This document shows positions 30,255 to 55,750 of a stretch of DNA of 64,000 nucleotides, piece by piece. Source of the DNA: an uncultured Pseudomonadota bacterium (GTDB taxonomy: Bacteria > Pseudomonadota > Gammaproteobacteria > Methylococcales > Methylomonadaceae); the NCBI GenBank assembly GCA_903918375.1, contig CAIXED010000071.1:6875-70874 (forward strand). Reading direction: 5' to 3'. Each line of letters opens with the position of its first letter. Positions within the stretch are counted from its first letter, which is position 1. The translations under genes and the position numbers were made by a program. Under the pieces are notes generated by a model. It searched no databases, had not been told where the DNA came from, and saw nothing but the letters and a program-made list of their open reading frames with translations.

Positions 30255-31778
30255 TTGGCCTTGAGTTACTCTAAAATGCCCTTGGGCATGTTTACAACAT
30301 CTAATAGATCAAGGATTATTCGTATGCAACCGCAAGATTATTTGCCGTTTTTTCAAGACCTGTTCATTCAAACTTATCAATCTACCCTCGAAAATCCAGT
30401 GTATGCCGCGTGTTTATCGGTGGCGGTATGGTTGCTGACAGCGATTTTTTACAGCATCAGAATTGGATTTTTAAATGGTCGAAACAAACGAGCAATCAAA
30501 ACCATTGCCGATATTAAGCAAGCTTTGACTGCAGCGGAGCAACAAGTCCAGCAAGCTCAAGACGAAATGCAAGCTCAACAGCAACAACTTGAGCAAAGCA
30601 CACAAAGCAATACCGAATTGAAAGAGCAATTAAAAGATATCGCCAGCCAATTAAGCTCCGCGATTCAAACTTTAGCCGCTAATCCCGATTTAGGTCAGCA
30701 AGGTTTGTCAGTTGGCCAAGGTTTATCAGCAGAAGCCTTGTTCCAGCGTTTTAATGCCGCTAATCAACAAATTTGTGAGCACTTGTTAGCGCAGCGCCAA
30801 AAACAAGCTGATTTAGAAGCCGATTTGCAAGCAGAGGCTGGTAAATTGGCTGACAAAGATCAACAAATTCAAACTATGCAGATCCGTCTTGATGCTCAAA
30901 GCCAGCAATTAGGTAATTTGACTTTAAGCATTGAAGATTTCAAACAGCAATTGAACCAACAACAGCAAGATGCTCAATTAAATGTTGCTCAGATCCAAAC
31001 TCAACATCAAGCCGAATTGTCAGCTTTGAGACAACAGTTACAACAAGCAAAACTGCAAGTGCCAGCGCCAGTTGTCGTCGAGCCGCCTAAGCCTGTCGTT
31101 CCGCCAGTGCCGGTTGCGCCTGTTACAGTTCAAGCCGTAACGCCAGCACCACTGATAGAAGTGAAACCATTGATTGCCGAGATTAAACCTGCGCCTGTCG
31201 TTTCAGAACCGGTTGTTACTGTCGCTCCACCTGCGGCTCCGGTAGAAAAAACAGTGCCTGTGCAAGCTAAGGCTCAGCCAGAAGCCAGCAAGCCTAAAGC
31301 TAAAGGCATGTTTGCCAGCGCCTTAAGCAGCTTTTCTAAGTTGGACAAAAAATTAGCAGGAGAGCCAACTCCGGTAGCTGAAGTTGAAACCGTTGCTACA
31401 AAACCAGTCAGCATTCCTGAGCCACAGCCGGTAGTTGAGAAGCCGATTGAGCCAGTGGTTGAGGCTGTTAAACCTGAACCGGTCGTTGTTGCCACCGAAA
31501 CCAAACCAAAAGCCAAGCCTGCAGTAGCAGCGAAAAAAGCCGACGGCAAAAGCAAAGGCTTTTTTGCCAAGGCGATGAACACCTTTGCTTCGATGGATCA
31601 AAAATTGGGTGGTACACCGAATGAAGGGGTTCAACCATTGGAAGAAGAAACTCCAGTGCTTGAAGCACAAGTTGTTGTTGAGGAAGCGCAAGCGCCAGTT
31701 GAGCCTGTCATTGCCGCAGCTCCGCAGCCTCAATCGGCAGCTAAAAAAGGTCTGTTCGGTAAGTTCAAGCGTAAATAA
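30255..31778 (+). CDS. Membrane-anchored coiled-coil / Pro-Val-Ala-rich protein of unknown function; start uncertain (alternative ATG at 30324, MQPQD...)
   Basis: It has one N-terminal TM, a Q-rich coiled coil and a PV-rich region, with three copies of a K-G-[FLM]-F-[AG]-K/S amphipathic motif. Confidence 0.5.
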   Translation: MALSYSKMPLGMFTTSNRSRIIRMQPQDYLPFFQDLFIQTYQSTLENPVYAACLSVAVWLLTAIFYSIRIGFLNGRNKRAIKTIADIKQALTAAEQQVQQAQDEMQAQQQQLEQSTQSNTELKEQLKDIASQLSSAIQTLAANPDLGQQGLSVGQGLSAEALFQRFNAANQQICEHLLAQRQKQADLEADLQAEAGKLADKDQQIQTMQIRLDAQSQQLGNLTLSIEDFKQQLNQQQQDAQLNVAQIQTQHQAELSALRQQLQQAKLQVPAPVVVEPPKPVVPPVPVAPVTVQAVTPAPLIEVKPLIAEIKPAPVVSEPVVTVAPPAAPVEKTVPVQAKAQPEASKPKAKGMFASALSSFSKLDKKLAGEPTPVAEVETVATKPVSIPEPQPVVEKPIEPVVEAVKPEPVVVATETKPKAKPAVAAKKADGKSKGFFAKAMNTFASMDQKLGGTPNEGVQPLEEETPVLEAQVVVEEAQAPVEPVIAAAPQPQSAAKKGLFGKFKRK

Positions 31779-31796
31779 AGCCCAATCAAGCCTTAT

Positions 31797-31873
31797 GGAT
31801 TTTCATTAAGTGCTGCTAAATGGTTGTAGTATTGGGAAATTCAAGACTTGGTTGGGGACATGATTGTCTTGTT
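31797..31873. repeat. Direct repeat copy A (upstream of rpn)
   Basis: GGATTTTCATTAAGTGCTGCTAAATGGTTG ... TTGGTTGGGGACATGATTGTCTTGTT. It matches copy B at 32995-33050 apart from a 21-nt insertion and a few substitutions. Confidence 0.85.
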
Positions 31874-31935
31874 ATGGCCACTTGCTCTGAGATGGTATCA
31901 AAAGGCCTTGAATAATTGCAGGCTATAATCAAAAC

Positions 31936-32922
31936 ATGAGTCAAGATCACGACAGCAGTTACAAATTTCTTTTTTCGAATCCAGAATTAGTTCGGGATTT
32001 GATCATGGGTTTTATTCCTGATGAATGGTTGCATAGCCTTGACTACACCACATTAGAGAAGGTGCCAGGCCATTACGTCAGCGAAGATTTTCAGCAACGG
32101 GAAGATGATATTGTCTGGCGAGTGAAAATCGGTGGTGATTGGTTGTATCTGTATTTGTTGCTGGAGTTTCAAAGCGGCGTCGACAAGTACATGGCGCTGC
32201 GGATGATGGTTTACATTGGTTTGCTGTATCAAGACCTGATTAAGCGCGGCGATGTGTTACCCGACGGGCGTTTGCCACCGATTTTGCCGATCGTTTTATA
32301 CAACGGCCAACCACGCTGGACTGCAGTTACCGACGTTTCGGAGTTAATTCCCGCCGTTCCCGGACTGGTTGAACAATTCAAACCCAAGCTGAAATATCTA
32401 TTGATTGATGAAAATGCTTACAGCGATGCAGAGTTGGCATCAGTCAATAATTTGGTGGCCGCCGTGTTTAGGCTGGAACACCCTGCTAATCCGCAAACCA
32501 TCAGTGAGTTATTAAGCGCATTGAATGACTGGCTGAGCGACAGGCCTGACTTACGACGCATGTTTGCCTTGTGGATACGGGCGACATTGATGAGAAAACC
32601 GGAGTACGGTATCGTGCTTCCCCAAGTAGATGATTTGCAGGAGATAAACGTTATGCTGGCACAACGACTAGAAGATTGGGCGCGTGGTTATCGAGCGGAA
32701 GGTCGGCAAGAAGGTCGACAAGAAGGCCGACAAGAAGGACTTCAAAAAGGTCGACAAGAAGGTGAGTTACTGGCGTTACAACGTTTGCTGTCACGGCGTT
32801 TTGGTGTAATTCCAGTGGATGTGACGGAAAGGATTTCAAAAGCGGCTTTGCCAGACATTGAGCTCTGGTTAGATCGGGTGATTGAGGCAAAACAATTGGC
32901 GGATGTATTTAACGATTCTTAA
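31936..32922 (+). CDS. Rpn family recombination-promoting nuclease / putative transposase (YhgA-like PD-(D/E)XK) with a DUF4351-like C-terminus
   Basis: The N-terminus is HDSSYKFLFSNPELVRDLI...DIVWRV...LYLLLEFQS. The C-terminus has EGRQEGRQEGRQEGLQKGRQEGE repeats followed by LLSRRFG.... Confidence 0.85.
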   Translation: MSQDHDSSYKFLFSNPELVRDLIMGFIPDEWLHSLDYTTLEKVPGHYVSEDFQQREDDIVWRVKIGGDWLYLYLLLEFQSGVDKYMALRMMVYIGLLYQDLIKRGDVLPDGRLPPILPIVLYNGQPRWTAVTDVSELIPAVPGLVEQFKPKLKYLLIDENAYSDAELASVNNLVAAVFRLEHPANPQTISELLSALNDWLSDRPDLRRMFALWIRATLMRKPEYGIVLPQVDDLQEINVMLAQRLEDWARGYRAEGRQEGRQEGRQEGLQKGRQEGELLALQRLLSRRFGVIPVDVTERISKAALPDIELWLDRVIEAKQLADVFNDS

Positions 32923-32994
32923 GTTTTACTAAGATTTTATTTTTGATCATCTCAGTTAAACGATAAAGGGCCAACCGGTCAGCAGTTGTCTTCT

Positions 32995-33050
32995 GGGTTT
33001 TCATTAAGTGCTAGCAAATGGTTGGTTGGGGGTGGCATGATTGTCTTGTT
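32995..33050. repeat. Direct repeat copy B (downstream of rpn)
   Basis: GGGTTTTCATTAAGTGCTAGCAAATGGTTGGTTGGGGGTGGCATGATTGTCTTGTT; see copy A. Confidence 0.85.
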
Positions 33051-33059
33051 GCGACCCAT

Positions 33060-33071
33060 TCCTGACGTCCA
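33060..33071. repeat. 12-bp direct repeat TCCTGACGTCCA, left copy, at the edge of the GC-rich cassette
   Basis: It is an exact match to 35570-35581 and contains the palindrome GACGTC. Confidence 0.9.
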
Positions 33072-33111
33072 AACCAAGACTGTTCCAATGACGGCCACCA
33101 AATTCGAGCCG

Positions 33112-35514
33112 TCATTCGCTATCGGCGACGTATTCGCACTTTGCAAAGGCTGTTCCGAGAACCGCCTGAATTGCGGGAATCAATTGATCTTTCTCAACTC
33201 GAGTAGCCCATTCGGACTGCTCAGGGATGTTACGTGCCTGGACCGTTCGAAGCGCAATTAAGACGCGTTGGAGCAATGGCAAAGACCTCGTTTCGATTGC
33301 CGCATTCACCCAATTATCGGCATGTGTCCACGAACGCGACAGCAAGTCGGCCATGGTCAGAGTGATAGGCTCTATGGGGCCTTGATCCTGACAGAGGACG
33401 CGGCCGAATTCGCCAATGTCGTGCTCTAAGTGGCCCAGTCCCTCCTCATTAGCCCGCATCAACGGGAACGGACACTGGCCGATCTGAAAAAGTAACCAAG
33501 CATCCATTCGTTGGCTGTCGTCGTCAACGACGGCGGTCGGCAGGCGCGCCAACTGTCCAAGGATCATCCATGGCGTTGTATTTGCATACATCCGCGATCG
33601 CTCAGCACCAAGGTCGACTGCCTCACCACGGACCTCGCCATAGCGGTCTGAGAGCCATGCCTTGCCGTCTTCGATCTTGAGGTAAATGACCTGACCGTCC
33701 CGTGTCGCCAAGCAGATCAGTGCCCGTTCCACGAGCTCTTCTTCAGGCTTGATCGAAAGCAGACCATCAATGATTCCGGAGTTGAATCCACCGGTCATGT
33801 CCGCGATGTTCCGGATCGCCTGGGCGCCCACGATGTCGCCGAGGTAAACTCCGGAAAGCTTCTGTCCCAGCCAAACGCCAGCGTCGTGTGGGTCAGCATT
33901 CGCCTGGCGTTCGAGTTCGGCGCCGGCGACGTCGGCTAGTTCAACGAGAAACGCGGCGGGAACGGTTGGCACAACGATGTCCTCGCCACAGGCGTGACGA
34001 TACACCCGCACCCAGCCTCCGCTTTTCAAATCGATCAGTGCATCTCGGGCTTCAGGCGAAAGAGCATCCTGCCGAATGACGAAGCCATTGGATGCAGCTA
34101 AGGCAAGTTCGGCTCGGCCAGCGTTCGTATCGGCTAGAGCGTCGCGAGCTAGCAGGCGGTAACCGCGTAAGAGAATTGCCTGCCCGGCATGAGCCTCGCG
34201 CGCAAAATCGACCAGATCGATGCCAAGCGCTGACGGCAGCAGCACTTCGCAGGACGGATCATCAAAGCGGGGATCGCGTGCGATCTTATCGTAGATGGTG
34301 CGCAGCACCCAGGGTGCGCGATAGTCTTCTGCATATTCTGATCCTTTGACAAAGGCGATTTTGTTATGCCGCAGGACTTGTTGCGCAGCCTGGAACTCCT
34401 CCAATCCAAGCGGGCCCAGTTCAATACCAGAGGCGTGCGTACCCAATCCCGTCAAAGTGCGCCCGTTGGGCGCCTTTATGAGACCTTCAGGTCGATCGGT
34501 AGTGATGATGACACGCAGATTCGTACCAGGGCCTATGCCTGCTAACTCCTCCAGATCCGCGGCCATAGAGGTGCCCGGATCGACGCTATCAATCGCTACG
34601 ACCAGAACCGGACCGGTCGAACCAGTCGACATCCGTCGGAGCCATTGGCGTGCATTGTTGGCCGAAAGGTTCCACTCGAGTTCGGCGGTGAATAGATTGG
34701 CCAACGACTGGAAAAGGCCTGGGCCTAAGCCACGCAGCATCAGCACGGCCAGTTCGTCGCTCTTGCTTGTCCTCAGAGCCAGTTCACGCAGGAGACTGGA
34801 CTTTCCCGTTGCTGGCGCACCTTCGACGATGGTGAAGGTTGGTCCATCCAGCAGAGTTTTGATCGCCCTGATCGTATCCAGCCGAGGGAATAACAGGTTG
34901 CTGGCGAACGGGCGGTTCGCCGCGCCGGGTTCGTTGGTCATCTCTTGCAGCAGCTTAGTTGTACTTGTGCGCACGATAGGCACCCAGACACCCGTTTCGC
35001 GCCCCATCAATGCCTCGATTGCCCACCGCATGTCGGCCGCGGCAATCTTGGCCGCGTTGGTGAGCAGACGCGCCACGGCGCCAGAGGCGTCGTCATCACC
35101 AGTCCATGCTTGGCCGGTGTTGGAGTCGTAAACTCGGGTTTCGCTGCCGTTTGTAACGACGACAAGAGGCGGCCGCGGTGTGAGTTGGTTGGCATAGCTC
35201 TGGGCCTGCTCGTAATCGTCGCGGGTGAGTGTCAGATCTTCGCGCTTTAATTCCAGCACTGCCAACGGGCGCTCATTGTGGAAAATCAGGATGTCGGCGC
35301 GACCGCTCTTTGTCCACTGGGCCGCACTGTCGAACTCGTGTGTAGCATGGCCGAGCCGCACAGTAAAGCGGCGCTGCTCAACTAATTGGTCACGCGGTAT
35401 GTTGGGAAACGCAATATTGAGAGCCGTAGCCAGTCGGCTTTCAAGTTCGGCTTCAGGGCGAACATCCAAGGCTGATTGTGGGGCTTCGTTATTTTTCTGT
35501 TGAGATTGGTCCAT
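33112..35514 (-). CDS. PD-(D/E)XK (HsdR_N/Mrr-like) nuclease domain fused to a STAND/NACHT-like P-loop NTPase and an unassigned ~450-aa C-terminal region
   Basis: It has GRADILIF...PLAVLELKRE...VVVTNGSETRVYD (D74, E88, K90), Walker A GAPATGKS (nt 34798-34821), Walker B VLVVAIDSVD, then RVIITTDRP. Codon composition is clearly GC-richer than the neighbours, and stop-free antisense ORFs are present. Confidence 0.6.
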   Translation of the reverse strand: MDQSQQKNNEAPQSALDVRPEAELESRLATALNIAFPNIPRDQLVEQRRFTVRLGHATHEFDSAAQWTKSGRADILIFHNERPLAVLELKREDLTLTRDDYEQAQSYANQLTPRPPLVVVTNGSETRVYDSNTGQAWTGDDDASGAVARLLTNAAKIAAADMRWAIEALMGRETGVWVPIVRTSTTKLLQEMTNEPGAANRPFASNLLFPRLDTIRAIKTLLDGPTFTIVEGAPATGKSSLLRELALRTSKSDELAVLMLRGLGPGLFQSLANLFTAELEWNLSANNARQWLRRMSTGSTGPVLVVAIDSVDPGTSMAADLEELAGIGPGTNLRVIITTDRPEGLIKAPNGRTLTGLGTHASGIELGPLGLEEFQAAQQVLRHNKIAFVKGSEYAEDYRAPWVLRTIYDKIARDPRFDDPSCEVLLPSALGIDLVDFAREAHAGQAILLRGYRLLARDALADTNAGRAELALAASNGFVIRQDALSPEARDALIDLKSGGWVRVYRHACGEDIVVPTVPAAFLVELADVAGAELERQANADPHDAGVWLGQKLSGVYLGDIVGAQAIRNIADMTGGFNSGIIDGLLSIKPEEELVERALICLATRDGQVIYLKIEDGKAWLSDRYGEVRGEAVDLGAERSRMYANTTPWMILGQLARLPTAVVDDDSQRMDAWLLFQIGQCPFPLMRANEEGLGHLEHDIGEFGRVLCQDQGPIEPITLTMADLLSRSWTHADNWVNAAIETRSLPLLQRVLIALRTVQARNIPEQSEWATRVEKDQLIPAIQAVLGTAFAKCEYVADSE

Positions 35515-35569
35515 GTATTTAGTGCTAAAAGCTATTTATTTGTTCGATCAATATGATGAGCGGGAATGC

Positions 35570-35581
35570 TCCTGACGTCCA
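35570..35581. repeat. 12-bp direct repeat TCCTGACGTCCA, right copy
   Basis: It is an exact match to 33060-33071 and lies 55 nt upstream of the start codon of the 800-aa gene. Confidence 0.9.
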
Positions 35582-35771
35582 GCGTCTCACTTTCAGGTGG
35601 AGCTGACCTTCGAGCGACCGCTTCAAACACTGTATGGATGACCGAAGATGGCCGTTAACAAGCATTCCGGTTAACCAACTTTTCACCAAACGGTGCAAAC
35701 TAAAAACAGTCGGCGTTGTGATTTCCACCCTTAGAATGCAAATAGCCGGTGTTTTAAACTATGTGCCTCTT

Positions 35772-36617
35772 TCACTTAGTATTTCGTGCCGCTAAGCGTG
35801 GAATATCGCTACTGATAAATAAAGCCGGATCGACGGCTTCCTTGTTTAAATAAACAATCCAATGTAAATGTGGGCCAGTCACTCGACCAGTCGCCCCGAC
35901 ACTGCCCAAGCGTTGACCTTGATAGATTTGCTGGCCATTGTGGACATCAATTTGGGTCATGTGTAGATAAACACTAATCAAACCCTGACCGTGATCTAAA
36001 AACACGGTATTGCCATTAAAGAAAAAACTCCCTGTGCCAATCACCTTGCCAGAAGCAGGGGCCATAATCGGGGTGCCAGCAACAGCGGCAATGTCTAAAC
36101 CGTTATGCGGTTGGCGTGGGACGTTATTAAAAAAGCGTTTCAAGCCAAATAAGCTGCTTAAACGACCATCAACCGGTGCCGTGAAATGAGTATCAGCAGG
36201 GCGTTGGCTCCAAGTGCTTTTAATCTGCTCCATACTGATTTTTTCCGACTCAATCCGTCTCAAGTCTTCCGGTGTCATTTCATCAACCATGCGTTTGTTT
36301 TCGATAGTTAAACGCTGTTCTGGATAATGTTTATCCAACACCATAAACGAGATTTCGCCATTGCCAGCACTGGATTCGACCATCAGCTTTTGTAAGCCCG
36401 GTGTCGCTGCTAATGGAATCCCAACCAACGCTAGCCATTGACCATTACGCTCGGTGACTAGAACGCGATTGCGATTGAAATAGGCGTTGGGGGCAGGGGA
36501 GCGACTGTCACCAAGGTTAATTTCGGCAACCCCACCTGGCACGGTTAAATTTTGTGGATAAGGATCGGCTTGGCTGAGCAGAGGAAATAAGCTCAGTAGT
36601 AGCAGTTTTTTAATCAT
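35772..36617 (-). CDS. M23 family metallopeptidase (LytM-type)
   Basis: It has a signal peptide, HNGLDIAA, and GATGRVTGPHLHW (the HxH motif). Confidence 0.85.
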   Translation of the reverse strand: MIKKLLLLSLFPLLSQADPYPQNLTVPGGVAEINLGDSRSPAPNAYFNRNRVLVTERNGQWLALVGIPLAATPGLQKLMVESSAGNGEISFMVLDKHYPEQRLTIENKRMVDEMTPEDLRRIESEKISMEQIKSTWSQRPADTHFTAPVDGRLSSLFGLKRFFNNVPRQPHNGLDIAAVAGTPIMAPASGKVIGTGSFFFNGNTVFLDHGQGLISVYLHMTQIDVHNGQQIYQGQRLGSVGATGRVTGPHLHWIVYLNKEAVDPALFISSDIPRLAARNTK

Positions 36618-49536: not shown

Positions 49537-49562
49537 AAAAATCCAGATTAGGCTGGATTTTT
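49537..49562. terminator. Bidirectional terminator overlapping the mfd stop codon
   Basis: AAAAATCCAG-attagg-CTGGATTTTT has A/T runs on both sides. Confidence 0.5.
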
Positions 49563-52500
49563 TAGTGTTAGTCGCAACAGCACTTTCTCCAAAAACGCCA
49601 CCTTCTGTTCCATATCCTCAAAATTTTGGGTAAACCTTAATTTATCTGCGCCATCAAATTTATAAACCTGCGCTTGGGTTTGAATCATCATAATCAATTC
49701 ACCGGTATCAATTTGCGGGGTTGAGGTAAAGATAATCCGGCCACCGGTTGCATGGGCTTCGAGTTTTTTAATACCTAAATGCGCGGCTTGTTGTTTTAAC
49801 TCGGTGACTGCAAACAGGGCTTTGGTTTGATCCGGCAATAAACCAAAACGGTCTATCATTTCGACTTTTAAGGCTCGTAAATCATCACTGGTTTCAGCGC
49901 TGGCGATGCGTTTGTACAACACCAAACGAGCGTGAATATCCGGCAGGTAATCTTCGGGAATCAAAGTAGCGGTTTGCAAATCGACTTCTGGGCCGTAATC
50001 AAACGGTGCATCGAGTTCTGGCTGTTTGCCAGATTGCAAAGCTTTTACCGCGCGTTCCAGCAATTCGGTGTACATGGTGAAGCCGATTTCCTGAATTTGA
50101 CCGCTTTGATCATCGCCCAGCAATTCACCGGCGCCACGAATTTCCATGTCATGTGATGACAACATAAAGCCTGCACCCAATTCGCCAGAGCTTTCAAACG
50201 CTTCTAAACGCTTAATCGCATCTTTCGACATCAAAGATTTAGGCGGCACCACGCAATAAGCATAAGCGCGATGATGCGAACGTCCGACACGACCGCGTAG
50301 CTGATGCAACTGCGCCAAGCCTAATTTGTCGGCACGATTGATGATGATGGTATTGGCGGTCGGTACGTCGATACCGCTTTCGATAATCGTGGTGCTGATT
50401 AAGACATTGAAACGCTGGTGATAAAAATCCAGCATGATTTGTTCCAGCTCGCGTTCAGCCATTTGTCCGTGAGCGATTTGCACTCGCGCTTCTGGCACCA
50501 AAGCTTCTAGCTCGCGGGCCATTTTATCCATGCCTTTAACATCGTTATGCAGGAAAAACACCTGGCCACCGCGTTTAATTTCCCGCTGGCAAGCTTCCTG
50601 AATTTGCGAATCTATCCACTCGGTAATGAAGGTTTTAATCGCATGACGATTCGGCGGCGGGGTGGCGATAATCGAAATATCGCGTAGTCCAGACATCGCC
50701 ATGTTTAAAGTGCGCGGAATCGGGGTGGCGGTTAAAGTCAGCAAATCCAGCTCGTGACGCAGTTTTTTGAAATGCTCTTTTTGCGCCACGCCAAACCGAT
50801 GTTCCTCGTCGATAATCACTAAACCCAGCGCTTTATATTCCATGTCTTTGGACAGCAATTTGTGAGTGCCGATTACCACATCGACTTTACCAGCGGCTAA
50901 ATCGTCGTTAATCGCTTTTTGCTGTTTCGGCGTTACAAACCGCGACATCACTTCAATCCGAATTGGCCAATCGGCAAAACGGTCACGGAAGTTTTGATAA
51001 TGTTGTTGGGCGAGGAGGGTAGTGGGCACCAAAACAGCCACTTGTTTGCCGCTTTGCACGGCGATAAATGCCGCCCGCATCGCGACTTCGGTTTTACCAA
51101 AGCCGACATCGCCGCAAACCACGCGATCCATCGGCTGCGGATTAGCCATGTCATGGATAATCGCTTCGATAGCGCTGGCTTGGTCTGGGGTTTCTTCAAA
51201 TGGAAACGCGGCGGCAAAGGCGTTGTATTCGGTGTTTTCGACATTAAAGGCAAAGCCCTGACGCGCCGCACGCTTGGCGTGAATGTCCAGCAATTCAGCG
51301 GCCACATCCCGCGCCCGTTCCATGGCTTTTTTCTTGGCCTTGCTCCATTGCTCGGTGCCTAATTTGTGCAGCGGTGCATTTTCAGCGCTGATGCCGCTGT
51401 AGCGACCGATTAAATGCAAGGATGAAACCGGCACATACAGCTTGTCGTTGTTGGCGTATTCCAGCATCAAAAATTCAGCTTCAAAACCACCGACATTGAG
51501 AGTCTGTAAACCTAAATAACGGCCAACACCGTGTTCTTGATGCACCACTGGCGAGCCGATAGTTAGCTCGTTAAGGTTGTTGAAAATGTTTTCTAATTCA
51601 CGCGCAGCCGATTTGCGGCGACGGCGACGTTGCTGGACTTTTTCGCCATTTAACTGGCTTTCGGTAATGATGGCTAACGGCGGCTTGTCTAGCCATAAAC
51701 CGTGATCCAGCGGTGCAACCACGATAGATAATTTGTCATCGGAAGCTAAAAACTCCGGCCAATTTTGAACTTGTTTAGGCTTGATCTTGACCGCTTTCAG
51801 TTTTTCTAAAATCCCTTCACGATGGCCGGCGGTTTCAGCGATTAACAGGATTTTGCCATCGGCAGTTTCGATAAACTGGCGTAGCTTTTGTGCGGGTTCT
51901 TTTAAGCGGTTATCAATGGCGATTTCCGGTAAGGCTTGGCATTGAAACGGAAAACCGAGCTCGGCTTGGTTGTCCAACACAATCTGAGCAAATTTCTGGC
52001 TGTCTGCTAACAAATCATCAGCGCTCAAAAATAATTGAGTTGGCGGCAATAACGGTCTATCGACGGCGTATTTGCGTTGTTGATAACGCTGTTCGGCTTC
52101 GTCATAAAAGCGCTGGGCGGTGTCGGCAAAATCGCTAGGCACCACAAACACGGCATTTTTCGGCAAATAAGCGAATAAGGATTCGGTTTTATCAACGAAT
52201 AACGGCAGGTAATACTCAATCCCTGCTGGTGCGATGTGTTTGGAAACGTCTAAATACAGCGTGTTTTTCGGTGAAGATTCGGGGAATTGTTCGCGAAACG
52301 CTTGGCGAAAATGCTTGATAGCCTCGTCGGTAAATGGGAATTCACGGGCTGGGAATAGCTCGAATTTATCCATTTTTTGCTGTGACATTTGGCTGTCGGG
52401 GTCGAAGCTGCGAATTGATTCAACTTCATCATCAAACAACTCAATCCGATACGGTTGCTTACTGCCCATTGGGAACAGGTCGATAATCGAGCCGCGCACC

Positions 52501-53000
52501 GCAAATTCACCGTGTTGATAGACTTGCGAAACACATTGATAACCGACCGCTTCCAGTTTGAGGCGGCTCAGTTCCAAGTTCAAAGTGCCACCGACTTCAA
52601 TCACGAAACTATGCGCCAAAATATGTTCGCGGGGTGCTAAGCGGTGCATCAAGGTGGCAACCGAAACAATCAAGGCACCGCGTTTGGTGTCGGGGAGCAG
52701 GGCAAGGGTGCGTAGGCGTTCGGAAATGATTTCCGGTAGCGGTGAAAACACGTCATACGGCAAGGTTTCCCAGTCGGGAAAATGCAAAATCGGTAGGCTA
52801 TTATTCAAGAAAAAGCCTAATTCATGTTCCAAACGCAACGCGGTTTGGGTGTCGGAGGTGACAATCACCCATAAGCGTTGTTGTTGAGCAATCGCGGTGG
52901 CTAAAGCTAAGGAATCACCGCAGCCATTCAAACCGCTCCAAAACAGAGGTTGATCGGGGCTAACAGCCAATGCTGATTCAGGAATAAGCGATAAAGACAT
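49548..53000 (-). CDS. mfd: Transcription-repair coupling factor
   Basis: 1150 aa with a UvrB-homology N-terminus, CarD-like region, GDVGFGKTEVA, DEEHRFG and a TRG motif region. Confidence 0.97.
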   Translation of the reverse strand: MSLSLIPESALAVSPDQPLFWSGLNGCGDSLALATAIAQQQRLWVIVTSDTQTALRLEHELGFFLNNSLPILHFPDWETLPYDVFSPLPEIISERLRTLALLPDTKRGALIVSVATLMHRLAPREHILAHSFVIEVGGTLNLELSRLKLEAVGYQCVSQVYQHGEFAVRGSIIDLFPMGSKQPYRIELFDDEVESIRSFDPDSQMSQQKMDKFELFPAREFPFTDEAIKHFRQAFREQFPESSPKNTLYLDVSKHIAPAGIEYYLPLFVDKTESLFAYLPKNAVFVVPSDFADTAQRFYDEAEQRYQQRKYAVDRPLLPPTQLFLSADDLLADSQKFAQIVLDNQAELGFPFQCQALPEIAIDNRLKEPAQKLRQFIETADGKILLIAETAGHREGILEKLKAVKIKPKQVQNWPEFLASDDKLSIVVAPLDHGLWLDKPPLAIITESQLNGEKVQQRRRRRKSAARELENIFNNLNELTIGSPVVHQEHGVGRYLGLQTLNVGGFEAEFLMLEYANNDKLYVPVSSLHLIGRYSGISAENAPLHKLGTEQWSKAKKKAMERARDVAAELLDIHAKRAARQGFAFNVENTEYNAFAAAFPFEETPDQASAIEAIIHDMANPQPMDRVVCGDVGFGKTEVAMRAAFIAVQSGKQVAVLVPTTLLAQQHYQNFRDRFADWPIRIEVMSRFVTPKQQKAINDDLAAGKVDVVIGTHKLLSKDMEYKALGLVIIDEEHRFGVAQKEHFKKLRHELDLLTLTATPIPRTLNMAMSGLRDISIIATPPPNRHAIKTFITEWIDSQIQEACQREIKRGGQVFFLHNDVKGMDKMARELEALVPEARVQIAHGQMAERELEQIMLDFYHQRFNVLISTTIIESGIDVPTANTIIINRADKLGLAQLHQLRGRVGRSHHRAYAYCVVPPKSLMSKDAIKRLEAFESSGELGAGFMLSSHDMEIRGAGELLGDDQSGQIQEIGFTMYTELLERAVKALQSGKQPELDAPFDYGPEVDLQTATLIPEDYLPDIHARLVLYKRIASAETSDDLRALKVEMIDRFGLLPDQTKALFAVTELKQQAAHLGIKKLEAHATGGRIIFTSTPQIDTGELIMMIQTQAQVYKFDGADKLRFTQNFEDMEQKVAFLEKVLLRLTLKNPA

Positions 53001-53344: not shown

Positions 53345-55750
53345 ATGGACAAGCTTAGCCTTAGCGAACGCGATATTTGCACAAAATTCATCACCCCAGC
53401 CATTCAAAAAGCCGGCTGGCAACAACATCAGTTCCGTGAAGAAGTAAATCTCACTGACGGTCGTGTCATGGTGCGAGGTAAACTCGCAGCACGCATCAAA
53501 AACCCAGAGGCAAAAGGCGGTCCCAAACGTGCCGATTTCGTACTCTATGCAAGGCCCAACCACCCTATCGCAGTAGTTGAAGCCAAACAGGCCAAGTTTT
53601 CTATTGGTCATGGTATGCAACAGGCCTTGGCCTATGCCGAAATGCTAGATACACCGTTTGCCATCAGCAGCAACGGCGATGGCTTTCTTCTGCACGACCG
53701 AACCGGTCTCACTCAACCAGTAGAACGTGAGCTACCACTCAACGAATTCCCTGCTTTGGATGAGCTTTGGCCGCTGTACCAGCAATGGAAAGGGCTGGCC
53801 GCACCCGAAGCTGTCAAACTCATTGAACAGCCTTTCCATACTGATGGCAGCGGCAAAGAACCCCGCTATTACCAACGCGTGGCAATCAATCGCGCTATAG
53901 AAGCAGTCGCAAAGGGCCAACAACGTGTACTGCTGGTTATGGCCACTGGCACCGGTAAAACCTACACCGCTTTTCAGATTATTTGGCGACTGTGGAAAGC
54001 CAAATCCAAGAAGCGCATCCTGTTTCTGGCTGATCGCAATATTCTGGTTGACCAAACTATGCAGCAAGACTTCGCACCGTTTGGCGAAGTAATGCACAAG
54101 GTCAGCAATCGCGAAGTTAAGAAAAACTACGAAATTTACCTAGCGCTCTACCAAGCAGTCACAGGCAAAGAAGAATGGAAGCAAATTTATCGCCAATTTC
54201 CAGCTGACTTCTTTGATCTAGTCGTGATTGACGAATGCCACCGAGGCAGCGCCGCGGAAGACTCCGCTTGGCGTGAAGTGCTTGGCTATTTCACCAGCGC
54301 AACCCATTTAGGACTTACCGCTACCCCTAAGGAAACAAAAGAAATTAGCAACAGTAACTACTTTGGCGAACCGATTTACACCTATTCGCTCAAGCAGGGC
54401 ATCGAAGATGGTTTTCTTGCGCCTTACAAAGTGATCCGCATAGCCACCGATGTAGATGCAGTAGGCTACACCCCAGAAAAAGGTAAGGTCGATAAACTCG
54501 GCCAAGCGGTTGAGCAACGTCACTACAACACCAAAGATTTCGACCGTAATCTGGTACTGGAAAAACGCACCAAACTGGTTGCCAGCAAAGTATGGGAATA
54601 CCTTAAGGCCACTGATCCGATGGCGAAAACCATCGTCTTTTGCGACGATCAAGATCACGCCGAACGTATGCGCCAAGAACTGGTGAAGCTGATTCCAGCT
54701 GCAGCCAATAACCGCCGCTACGTGATGCGCATCACTGGCGACGACAACGAAGGCAAAGCACAACTGTCGTACTTCATTGATAACGATGAACCTTATCCGG
54801 TGATTGCGACTACCTCCAAACTTCTGACCACTGGCGTCGATGCCAAAACCTGCAAGCTCATCGTACTGGATCAGAACATCAACTCAATGACCGAGTTCAA
54901 ACAAATCATTGGCCGAGGCACACGCCTGCGTGAGGATTATCAGAAACTGTACTTCACCATCATGGACTTTAAAGGCGCTACACGACTGTTCGCCGATGCC
55001 GATTTCGATGGCGAGCCGGTCGTAATATACGAGCCAAAACCCGATGAACCGGTCGTTCCCCCAGACACCAATCCAGAGGATATCCTTGAACCCACGCCAC
55101 CACCTTACGGCTCTAGCACCACGGGTAGCAATGACACCGACGCTGAAGGTCGCACTAAATACGTCATCGACGACGTCAACGTGCAAGTGGCTGTCGAGCG
55201 CTCTCAATACCTTGATGCCGACGGTAAACTGATGACCGAAGACTACCGAGTCTTGCTCAAAGACGACATCAAGAAAACTTTACAGACCGAATTCGGCAGC
55301 CTCACCGACTTTCTGCGTCGCTGGAACAATGCCGAACGCAAACAAGCGGTACTAGAGCAATTGGCTGAACATGGCGTAGCTCTGGACATCCTACAGCAGG
55401 CAGTAAGCAACGGCAGCGAGTTAGATGCTTTTGATCTGGTTGCTCACGTTGCCTTCGATCAAAAACCACTGACCCGCCGCGAACGCGCCAATCAAGTGAA
55501 AAAGCGCGATGTGTTCGGTAAATACGGTGAACAAGCCCGTGCTGTGCTGGAGGCTCTACTCGAGAAATTTGCCGACCACGGTGTGCAAGACATTGAAGAC
55601 GCTAGAGTGCTGGAACTGCCGCCTTTTGATCAATTCGGCAGCAAAACCCAAATCCGTCGCGGCATTTTTGGCAGTGTCGAGCAATATAGCCAAGCCATAC
55701 AAGAACTCGAACAAGCGCTTTATGACCCATCTTTACAAAAACAAGCCTAA
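53345..55750 (+). CDS. hsdR: Type I restriction enzyme R subunit (EcoEI/COG4096-like)
   Basis: It has an N-terminal nuclease core (ADFVLY...IAVVEAKQ...AISSNGDG), helicase motifs (ATGTGKT, DECHRG, LGLTATP, QIIGRGTR) and a C-terminal helical domain. Confidence 0.9.
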   Translation: MDKLSLSERDICTKFITPAIQKAGWQQHQFREEVNLTDGRVMVRGKLAARIKNPEAKGGPKRADFVLYARPNHPIAVVEAKQAKFSIGHGMQQALAYAEMLDTPFAISSNGDGFLLHDRTGLTQPVERELPLNEFPALDELWPLYQQWKGLAAPEAVKLIEQPFHTDGSGKEPRYYQRVAINRAIEAVAKGQQRVLLVMATGTGKTYTAFQIIWRLWKAKSKKRILFLADRNILVDQTMQQDFAPFGEVMHKVSNREVKKNYEIYLALYQAVTGKEEWKQIYRQFPADFFDLVVIDECHRGSAAEDSAWREVLGYFTSATHLGLTATPKETKEISNSNYFGEPIYTYSLKQGIEDGFLAPYKVIRIATDVDAVGYTPEKGKVDKLGQAVEQRHYNTKDFDRNLVLEKRTKLVASKVWEYLKATDPMAKTIVFCDDQDHAERMRQELVKLIPAAANNRRYVMRITGDDNEGKAQLSYFIDNDEPYPVIATTSKLLTTGVDAKTCKLIVLDQNINSMTEFKQIIGRGTRLREDYQKLYFTIMDFKGATRLFADADFDGEPVVIYEPKPDEPVVPPDTNPEDILEPTPPPYGSSTTGSNDTDAEGRTKYVIDDVNVQVAVERSQYLDADGKLMTEDYRVLLKDDIKKTLQTEFGSLTDFLRRWNNAERKQAVLEQLAEHGVALDILQQAVSNGSELDAFDLVAHVAFDQKPLTRRERANQVKKRDVFGKYGEQARAVLEALLEKFADHGVQDIEDARVLELPPFDQFGSKTQIRRGIFGSVEQYSQAIQELEQALYDPSLQKQA

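Follow-up and report, generated by a model that had tools for sequence, protein, structure and literature searches.

A strain-variable cargo slot beside an rpn gene in a Methylomonas-like methanotroph, occupied by a putative nuclease-STAND defence gene

Introduction

Defence islands and integration hotspots hold variable content, partly defence genes, between conserved core genes, and the pdif modules of Acinetobacter are modules that lie between short recombination sites. Here we describe a locus that can be compared with both, namely, a small slot next to an rpn gene in a 64,000-nucleotide (nt) stretch of an uncultured Pseudomonadota bacterium (contig CAIXED010000071.1, positions 6,875 to 70,874; the whole stretch is hereafter called the window, and all coordinates refer to it). 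The slot is occupied by a single gene for an 800-amino-acid (aa) protein that combines a nuclease domain with a STAND NTPase. An earlier note, made from the sequence alone, had taken this gene for a GC-rich single-gene cassette bounded by an exact 12-nt direct repeat, TCCTGACGTCCA. The host of the window is a Methylomonas-like methanotroph: the flanking genes hflKC, hisZ, purA and xseA and those for an M23 peptidase and an SLT transglycosylase are closest to those of Methylomonas and other Methylococcales.

Two groups of described systems are closest to the genes of the locus. The rpn loci are reported to have neither terminal inverted repeats nor target-site duplications, to have variable ends and to form arrays through tandem duplication, and strain-variable four-amino-acid repeats are a reported trait of the RpnS antitoxin region in Rpn toxin-antitoxin defence genes (PMC10400941). 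Overexpression of Rpn promotes RecA-independent DNA acquisition, and RpnA is a nuclease of low sequence specificity (PMC5350276). A nucleotide-precise cargo slot right after an rpn-flanking repeat is undescribed in these two papers. The 800-aa protein, for its part, has the same layout as Avs proteins such as Avs3 and Avs4, in which a PD-(D/E)xK or Mrr-like nuclease is N-terminal (PDB 8dgf; STAND survey PMC13581612), i.e. nuclease, STAND NTPase and C-terminal domain, and, like these, is encoded by a single gene that resides in defence islands, integrative and conjugative elements (ICEs) and integrase islands and has been spread widely by horizontal transfer.

Results

For comparison, Logan contigs from 14 additional metagenome runs (lake and freshwater) were aligned to the locus; runs X1-X4 come from populations carrying the 800-aa gene, and runs X5-X18 have the flanks of the slot with other cargo. 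Across X5-X18, coverage dropped to zero between positions 33058 and 35648 (2,591 bp, minus strand) while both flanks were covered. The slot starts exactly where R1', the repeat that follows rpn, ends (R1', 32990-33058 or 32990-33063, plus strand, ends in CTTGTTGCGACCCA, and the constant left flank of the slot ends here). On this side, the sister strains diverge from the window after 33057 (X5, X6, X10, X12, X13 and X18), 33058 (X11), 33064 (X11 and X15-17) or 33067 (X7-9). On the right side, similarity resumes at exactly 35649 in X5-X12, and the assembled loci L010 and L095 likewise diverge at 35649, fixing the right boundary to the nucleotide, immediately after ...GCTTGTTAACGGCCA. The adjoining right arm, a constant 102-nt sequence (35649-35750), is common to all occupied strains, and its inner end reads CTTGTTAACGGCCA in reverse complement.

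Joints from 33057 or 33067 to 35649 hold 844 or 2,194 other letters. Altogether, at least 7-8 alternative occupants of the slot were found in the lake strains, all unrelated to the window cargo: 844 nt in X7-9, 2,194 nt in X6 and X12, a different sequence in X5 and X18, two further types in X11 and X15-17, an integron integrase in L010 and X10 (TIGR02249, E = 1e-48; X10 shows its end), and, in L095, genes for a TetR regulator, an 86-aa open reading frame (ORF), a short-chain dehydrogenase (SDR) and a RicinB-like protein. The integrase gene of L010 (9063-9490) contains one frameshift and points with its 3' end toward the M23 gene; the contig stops within the gene.

As an exchange hotspot, the slot stands out for its small size and its precision. 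It shares with the hotspots of defence islands a variable, partly defence-related content between conserved genes as well as the presence of empty and occupied alleles in one population. It differs from them in being tiny (0.8-2.6 kb), in using identical breakpoints for unrelated cargos and in lacking an integrase, tRNA or mobile-element scaffold. Furthermore, not every cargo is a defence gene, as the TetR-dehydrogenase operon of L095 illustrates.

Comparison with relatives that lack the insertion revealed a larger unit. Three loci with ~88-91% nucleotide identity (L009, L019 and L039) represent the empty site, in which only GCACAAA separates window position 31790 from 35751. The whole insert accordingly spans 31791-35750 (3,960 bp). 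Because the empty sites join 31790 to 35751, the insert in the window comprises rpn together with the 800-aa gene and not the 800-aa gene alone. These sites lack all of 31791-35750 and hold no copy of the 12-mer, whereas an empty site with one copy would be expected if the 12-mer bounded the inserted unit. At the empty site, the convergent genes for a 507-aa protein and the M23 peptidase are separated by a perfect hairpin (GGCACAAAGTTT/AAACTTTGTGCC), evidently a bidirectional terminator, which makes up the intergenic region. The insert interrupts the left arm of this hairpin, replacing 7 nt of it; the alignment with the empty sites places a remnant of the ancestral right arm at 35751-35768 (GTTTTAAACTATGTGCCT).

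Two further observations concern the outer junctions. Both L010 and L095 have lost ~22 nt at the terminator remnant 35751-35768, so that the outer junction has been eroded differently among occupied strains. Run X6, with a joint from 31649 to 35772, contains the empty-site allele along with occupied alleles bearing different cargo in one lake sample; a single natural population is polymorphic for the islet. The 507-aa ORF to the left of the insert (30255-31778) encodes a coiled-coil, Pro/Ala/Val-rich protein that matched no Pfam family above threshold, and contains an internal duplication (31167-31202 vs 31452-31487).

The cargo of the window recurs in unrelated surroundings. The loci L005-L008, which are a single sequence and are counted as one context, match positions 33117-35651 at 90.6% nucleotide and 88% amino acid identity, beside Fic, HipA and FlhD genes; in a third context, L091, positions 33124-35658 are matched at 84.9% and 81%, respectively. 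Homology starts at the right boundary of the slot in both (35651 and 35658) and extends across a leader and the ORF as far as the stop. The leader, a 137-nt, AT-richer sequence (35515-35651, minus strand, GC 0.467), travels with the gene and is presumed to comprise its promoter and 5' untranslated region. It is 93% identical in L005-8 and ~85% in L091, and is not conserved in family members of 75% identity or less, so that the 12-mer and the leader were rejected as family-wide motifs, being missing upstream of these members. No significant homology was found between the 3' tail of the window cargo, which holds the left 12-mer, and the sequence that follows the gene in L005, L091, L083, L084, L092 and L093. 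Right after the stop codon lies a hairpin with a 9-bp stem and no T-run (AATGACGGC/GCCGTCATT, 33083-33111, minus strand), which is not found in L005 or L091. Scans of the region for Rfam families, promoters and terminators yielded nothing informative.

The base composition of the cargo is foreign in this chromosome. GC content within the interval is 0.57-0.60 vs 0.42-0.48 in the flanks, in agreement with the earlier note; for the coding sequence of the 800-aa protein, GC is 0.577 and GC at third codon positions is 0.615, compared to ~0.46 and 0.38-0.44 in host genes. The GC content of the coding sequence equals that of family members in hosts of 60-69% GC, and in high-GC hosts the GC of the homologous gene matches that of its own flanks. 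The GC-rich single-gene cassette that the note had proposed is borne out, as a horizontally acquired one: the gene is missing in close relatives, is swapped in sister strains and occurs at 85-91% nucleotide identity in unrelated contexts. The note had also singled out the antisense ORF at 34346-35131 (261 aa), which is indeed the longest nested antisense ORF of the window (the runner-up has 151 aa). Its frame stays open solely in GC-rich homologues and reaches 73 aa in the low-GC homologue of E. coli; therefore, it is a by-product of composition, and was rejected as a gene. Nested antisense ORFs are also present in two other large ORFs of the window (53345-55750, 801 aa, and 49548-53000, 1,150 aa).

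The window contains exactly two copies of the 12-mer TCCTGACGTCCA, both on the plus strand (33060-33071 and 35570-35581), and no one-mismatch copies; shuffled sequences give an expectation of 0.10. One copy is 40 nt downstream of the stop codon (33112-33114) and the other 55 nt upstream of the start codon (35514) of the 800-aa ORF on the minus strand, as reported in the note. The rarity that had been attached to the pair holds in part. Exact 12-mer direct repeats are not rare per se: there are 282 pairs in the window, 52 of them with a spacing of 500-5000 nt, compared to ~172 and ~24, respectively, in Markov simulations. What is unusual is the position of both copies in the intergenic flanks of one gene. 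Only 4 pairs have both copies in intergenic sequence (three of these are in this locus, two of the three being part of the longer repeat R1/R1'), and the expected number of genes with an exact 12-mer on both sides, within their own intergenic DNA, is ~0.01 per 64-kb window, or about one per 5-Mb genome. Chance statistics alone cannot settle the question of the 12-mers.

The comparison of contexts is more informative. The right copy is kept at the same place in L005-8, where it is the sole copy, and is replaced by TGGACATTGGGG in L091. Both sides of it are colinear in the window, L005-8 and L091, with homology extending 67-86 nt beyond; therefore, the right copy is internal to the module and is not a junction. 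It sits inside the leader, 67 nt from the end of the cargo. The left copy begins 2 nt from the left end of the cargo, within a 48-nt tail absent from L005 and L091, and its first 5-8 nt belong to a stretch (ATTCCTG / ATTCCTGACG) that is common to two other cargos. No similarity flanks the two copies beyond the 12 nt, and no joint between them was found, at the contig level, in the carrier runs X1-X4. Judged by these sequence comparisons, the 12-mer pair is neither a target-site duplication nor an att core, and the identity of the two copies is very probably a coincidence. The boundaries drawn by the note were close to those of the real variable unit, 33058-35648, being off by 2 nt on the left and 67 nt on the right, where the unit ends at 35648 and not at 35581. 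Relatives do have the gene with other boundaries or without the repeats (one copy in L005-8, none in L091), and neither of the two unrelated contexts in which the cassette was found has a second 12-mer.

The 800-aa protein (33112-35514, minus strand) consists of an HsdR_N-type PD-(D/E)xK domain (~aa 20-135), a STAND NTPase (~aa 210-500) and an unassigned C-terminal domain (aa 500-800). Searches against Pfam identified HSDR_N (PF04313, E = 2.9e-10, and PF13588; aa 58-136) and, other than that, only weak matches to the P-loop families AAA_16 and AAA_22. Residues D74, E88 and K90 of the nuclease and G232, G237, K238 and D309 of the Walker A and B motifs are invariant in 42 homologues. The confident AlphaFold2 model (pLDDT 83.8) matched Apaf-1, CED-4, Cdc6/ORC, SAMD9, NLRC4, NOD2, NB-ARC and Avs4 in a Foldseek search of the PDB with E values of 1e-7 to 1e-5, the probability being 1.0 for Apaf-1, CED-4, Cdc6, NLRC4, NOD2, SAMD9 and Avs4. 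The protein thereby shows the core of a STAND NTPase (P-loop nucleotide-binding domain, helical domain and winged helix). When the C-terminal 300 aa were modelled alone, the model (pLDDT 77, likewise confident) was mixed alpha/beta and had no PDB match (the best had E = 0.54). Public annotation names the family HsdR, with which it shares the N-terminal HSDR_N PD-(D/E)xK domain and a weak match to the R subunit 3h1t. The identification as an R subunit of a type I restriction enzyme was rejected: there is no SF2 helicase/translocase domain, no hsdM or hsdS is adjacent (the neighbours are rpn and the M23 gene), and the ATPase is of the STAND type.

Compared to Avs proteins, which usually have 1,000-2,000 aa, the protein is short, its nuclease is of the HsdR_N type, and its C-terminal domain of ~300 aa, being mixed alpha/beta and without a PDB match, does not consist of TPR-like repeats; nor did PADLOC report an Avs match. 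The gene appears to be a new, unnamed member of the antiviral-STAND genes, and its membership in a named Avs family is not supported by the PADLOC and NCBIfam models. Given its architecture and the genomic contexts of its homologues, the protein is probably an anti-phage nuclease, a compact Avs-like sensor-nuclease that would act by abortive infection.

The family is distributed across Proteobacteria and beyond at 50-88% identity, including Pseudomonas, Burkholderia, Dickeya, Vibrio, Aeromonas and Shewanella, and is present in 236 of the 5,426 complete E. coli genomes (~4%). Homologues reside in ICEs, integrase-bounded islands and defence islands, with neighbours such as MmeI restriction-modification genes, a retron-like reverse transcriptase, DndB, YhcG and TerB_N, BrxC-like and DEAD genes. 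The E. coli homologue (L085-L088; H16 NC_013361.1) adjoins a cluster of TerB_N, BrxC/BrxD-like ATPase and DEAD helicase genes. It is split by IS3 in the O26:H11 strain 11368, many members of its 90% cluster are shortened (175-569 aa), and it is often a pseudogene. Three high-GC homologues are directly preceded by a gene for an HU-like protein (PF00216) and an ORF of 77-83 aa (L083 6388-6893, L084 6388-6893 and L093 963-1643), suggestive of a three-gene system; both are lacking in the window, L005 and the E. coli copies, and a DUF5623 gene precedes the P. aeruginosa copy. An assignment to the PANGU-type systems of a nucleoid-associated protein (NAP) and an effector was rejected; these concern YejK-like NAPs and not the HU-like gene, and the window has no such neighbour.

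The constant part of the insert is dominated by rpn (31936-32922, plus strand), a gene for an Rpn/YhgA-like PD-(D/E)XK recombination-promoting nuclease, that is, a defence gene of the toxin-antitoxin type. The note had found no integrase or transposase inside the interval between the 12-mers, which is correct; the neighbour is this Rpn/Transposase_31 protein. Its product contains PF04754 (Transposase_31; E = 1.7e-28, 100 bits vs a cutoff of 21) and DUF4351, and scores below threshold with NCBIfam TIGR01784 (39.3 bits, cutoff 52.1), as a divergent member. At 0.47, the GC content of rpn is host-like. Within rpn, a 12-nt tandem repeat (32686-32762, plus strand) encodes (EGRQ)n with a strain-variable copy number: X5 lacks 24 nt (two repeats) at 32728, and the contigs of X10 break within the repeat. 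The gene thus shares with RpnL/RpnS both the N-terminal PD-(D/E)XK Transposase_31 domain and a variable four-residue repeat (PMC10400941). A 31-nt contig within rpn (32393-32423) has ~2x the depth of its neighbours in X1-X4, suggestive of another rpn copy or of a strain sharing this word.

Two copies of an imperfect direct repeat of ~90 nt flank rpn. R1 (31792-31886, plus strand), upstream, contains CTTGTTATGGCCA at its end (31868-31880); R1' is the copy downstream of rpn that borders the slot. The copies are 76-86% identical (z = 10.5) and are the only two in the window; thus, this is not a dispersed repeat. The duplicated region upstream of rpn fits the tandem duplications reported for rpn loci, as does the absence of terminal inverted repeats and target-site duplications from the insert, and R1' may be the leftover upstream region of a second tandem rpn copy. 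The promoter region of rpn (31879-31924) is likewise swapped for other sequence in X10, X5, X6 and X7.

To these repeats can be added a candidate motif. A CTTGTT-N(3-5)-CCA sequence precedes each of three breakpoints: 31879, at the end of R1 (seen in X10); 33057, at the end of R1'; and, in inverted orientation, 35649, where the right arm has its inner end. R1 and the inverted right arm were alike in an anchored 24-nt comparison (P = 0.003), and the ~20 nt beside the 5' end of the module were alike in the window, L005 and L091 (P = 6e-4; 0.008 without the L005-L091 pair). Among the 9 loose matches to CTTGTT...CCA in the 64 kb, 3 end at the three breakpoints. The right arm as a whole was rejected as an inverted copy of R1 (P = 0.03), and the motif is missing beside distant family members. 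On this sequence evidence, a ~20-nt motif at the three breakpoints is moderately supported.

Discussion

These observations are best accounted for by a reading that we regard, when taken whole (islet, slot, imported Avs-like module, coincidental 12-mers and turnover at fixed breakpoints), as probable. As the comparisons show, a chromosome of the Methylomonas lineage has gained a 3.96-kb islet (31791-35750) at a site where two convergent core genes share a terminator. It consists of rpn flanked by R1 and R1', followed by the slot (33058-35648), the content of which varies among strains while its flanks remain the same to the nucleotide. Here, the slot is filled, as a recent import, by a 2.6-kb module from a high-GC donor, made up of the 137-nt leader and the 800-aa gene. 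Both 12-mers lie inside this cargo, one at its extreme 3' end and the other 67 nt within its 5' end, in the leader. In the protein, detection of a phage cue would be the task of the C-terminal domain and oligomerisation that of the NTPase, and DNA cleavage by the N-terminal PD-(D/E)xK nuclease would abort the infection. The turnover of cargo at fixed breakpoints would be either site-specific, at the ~20-nt CTTGTT-N-CCA motif, or due to repeated homologous replacement via the conserved flanks.

Site-specific exchange at the motif is, in our assessment, somewhere between doubtful and possible. An unlikely extension is that the rpn-adjacent slot exemplifies a new kind of site-specific cassette exchange, whereby modules of 0.8-2.6 kb would be swapped between CTTGTT-N(3-5)-CCA sites by a recombinase acting in trans, either Rpn or a tyrosine recombinase like that of L010. 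Among the modules so exchanged would be, with no greater likelihood, defence genes that bring their own promoters, and even an integrase of the integron type, and the same module would be found beside a similar site in unrelated bacteria. If true, such a system would account for the movement of solitary defence genes that lack mobility genes. That Rpn mobilises the cargo is speculation; since Rpn stimulates RecA-independent DNA uptake and RpnA has little specificity, Rpn is a possible helper and not an obvious site-specific enzyme. A further candidate is the integron integrase that occurs among the cargos, but attC, attI and G/TTRRRY features are lacking. With regard to pdif modules, the flanks of the slot may carry inverted copies of the ~20-nt motif, which is unlike dif and is weakly supported for R1'.

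Several points weigh against the proposed reading, particularly against its site-specific variant. The breakpoint motif was noticed post hoc, and in an unbiased scan of the window with the flanks of L005 and L091 the best matches were not at the breakpoints. As inverted repeats, R1' and the right arm were not significantly similar (7/19, P = 0.2; with a gap allowed, P = 0.09), and outer terminal inverted repeats of the insert are unsupported (outer 40 nt, P = 0.31). An empty slot, with 33057 joined to 35649, was not seen in any of the 18 runs, and no recombinase gene is encoded in the window. The sister-strain evidence consists of Logan contigs, in which rare variants are hidden. The framing of the gene by the 12-mer is nominally rare and its coincidental nature unproven, with the left copy sitting at the very end of the cargo. 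As for the protein, no defence model of PADLOC or NCBIfam matched (PADLOC gave only weak methyltransferase and mad8 hits on single domains), and the putative defence function is drawn from architecture and context only, the C-terminal domain having no structural relative.

Homologous recombination without any special site is the alternative that fares best, and we consider it a serious possibility, if short of an even chance. Under this scenario, the cargos would have spread by recombination in the flanks (rpn with R1' on one side, the 102-nt arm with the M23 gene on the other), and the shared breakpoints would reflect one ancestral junction. Identity of the flanks between strains is 88-97%, one lake sample contains both empty and occupied alleles, and the support for the breakpoint motif is only moderate, all of which is as this scenario would have it. 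However, each of the at least 7-8 unrelated cargos must first have entered between exactly the same two nucleotides, which homologous recombination by itself leaves unexplained, the 5' end of the module is the same beside a similar ~20-nt sequence in two unrelated contexts, and a third breakpoint falls at the equivalent position of R1.

It is rather improbable that the 12-mer is a functional short motif, for example, a protein-binding site with a GACGTC palindrome that serves regulation or the movement of the cargo. Conservation gives this idea some substance, given that the copy in the leader is exactly kept in L005-8 despite ~9% nucleotide divergence of the module, and so does the sequence of the cargo ends, which is not random: three cargos begin with ATTCCTG, two of them with ATTCCTGACG. 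The nominal rarity of the framing points the same way. Nevertheless, 5 of the 12 positions of the leader copy are changed in L091, four other cargos start differently, promoter or operator signals were not detected, and the 3' terminus of the window cargo did not significantly resemble the regions downstream of the L005 and L091 genes (P = 0.21 and 0.03, respectively).

An integron origin, in which the locus would be or have been a chromosomal integron and the 800-aa gene one of its cassettes, is very unlikely. The resemblance is not trivial: like integron cassettes, the cargos are discrete single units between short constant sequences, their genes have the same orientation, and an integron integrase occupies the exact slot in the sister strains L010 and X10. 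By contrast, no intI was detected in the window by tblastn, and the single-stranded DNA folds of R1, R1' and the 3' flank (32975-33115 and 31785-31925, both strands) had z scores of -0.4 to +0.8 without a long hairpin, so there is no attC structure. The breakpoints follow ...GTTGCGACCC and ...GTTAACGGCCA, 7-8 nt past GTT, and do not fall at the crossover point G/TTRRRY. Moreover, the module brings a 137-nt leader of its own and lacks a conserved 3' site, the cargo of L095 is a tight 4-gene operon, and in L010 it is the 3' end of intI, and not attI, that abuts the boundary.

Finally, the 12-mer pair as a target-site duplication or att core, left when a recombinase acting in trans inserted a 2.5-kb cassette (33072-35569) into what would have been an uninterrupted empty target, ...GACCCAT-TCCTGACGTCCA-GCGTCTCAC..., is extremely improbable: the repeat is exact, occurs only twice, frames the ORF and has its left copy at the left edge of the variable segment, but its right copy is internal and colinear with the gene in both unrelated contexts, the variable segment ends at 35648 in every sister strain, no transposase is present, and the termini of the cargo match at 7/13 positions only.

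Under the reading favoured here, namely, an islet with a slot of exchangeable cargo, the exact repeat framing a foreign gene is a plausible signature of mobility that can mislead, and it is population and comparative data that find the real unit. The 800-aa gene represents a widespread, compact and uncharacterised nuclease-STAND family, which is missed by defence models and annotated as a restriction-enzyme fragment, and is a candidate for phage-defence testing. The rpn-adjacent slot is a tractable natural system for the study of how solitary defence genes are exchanged and of whether Rpn nucleases take part.

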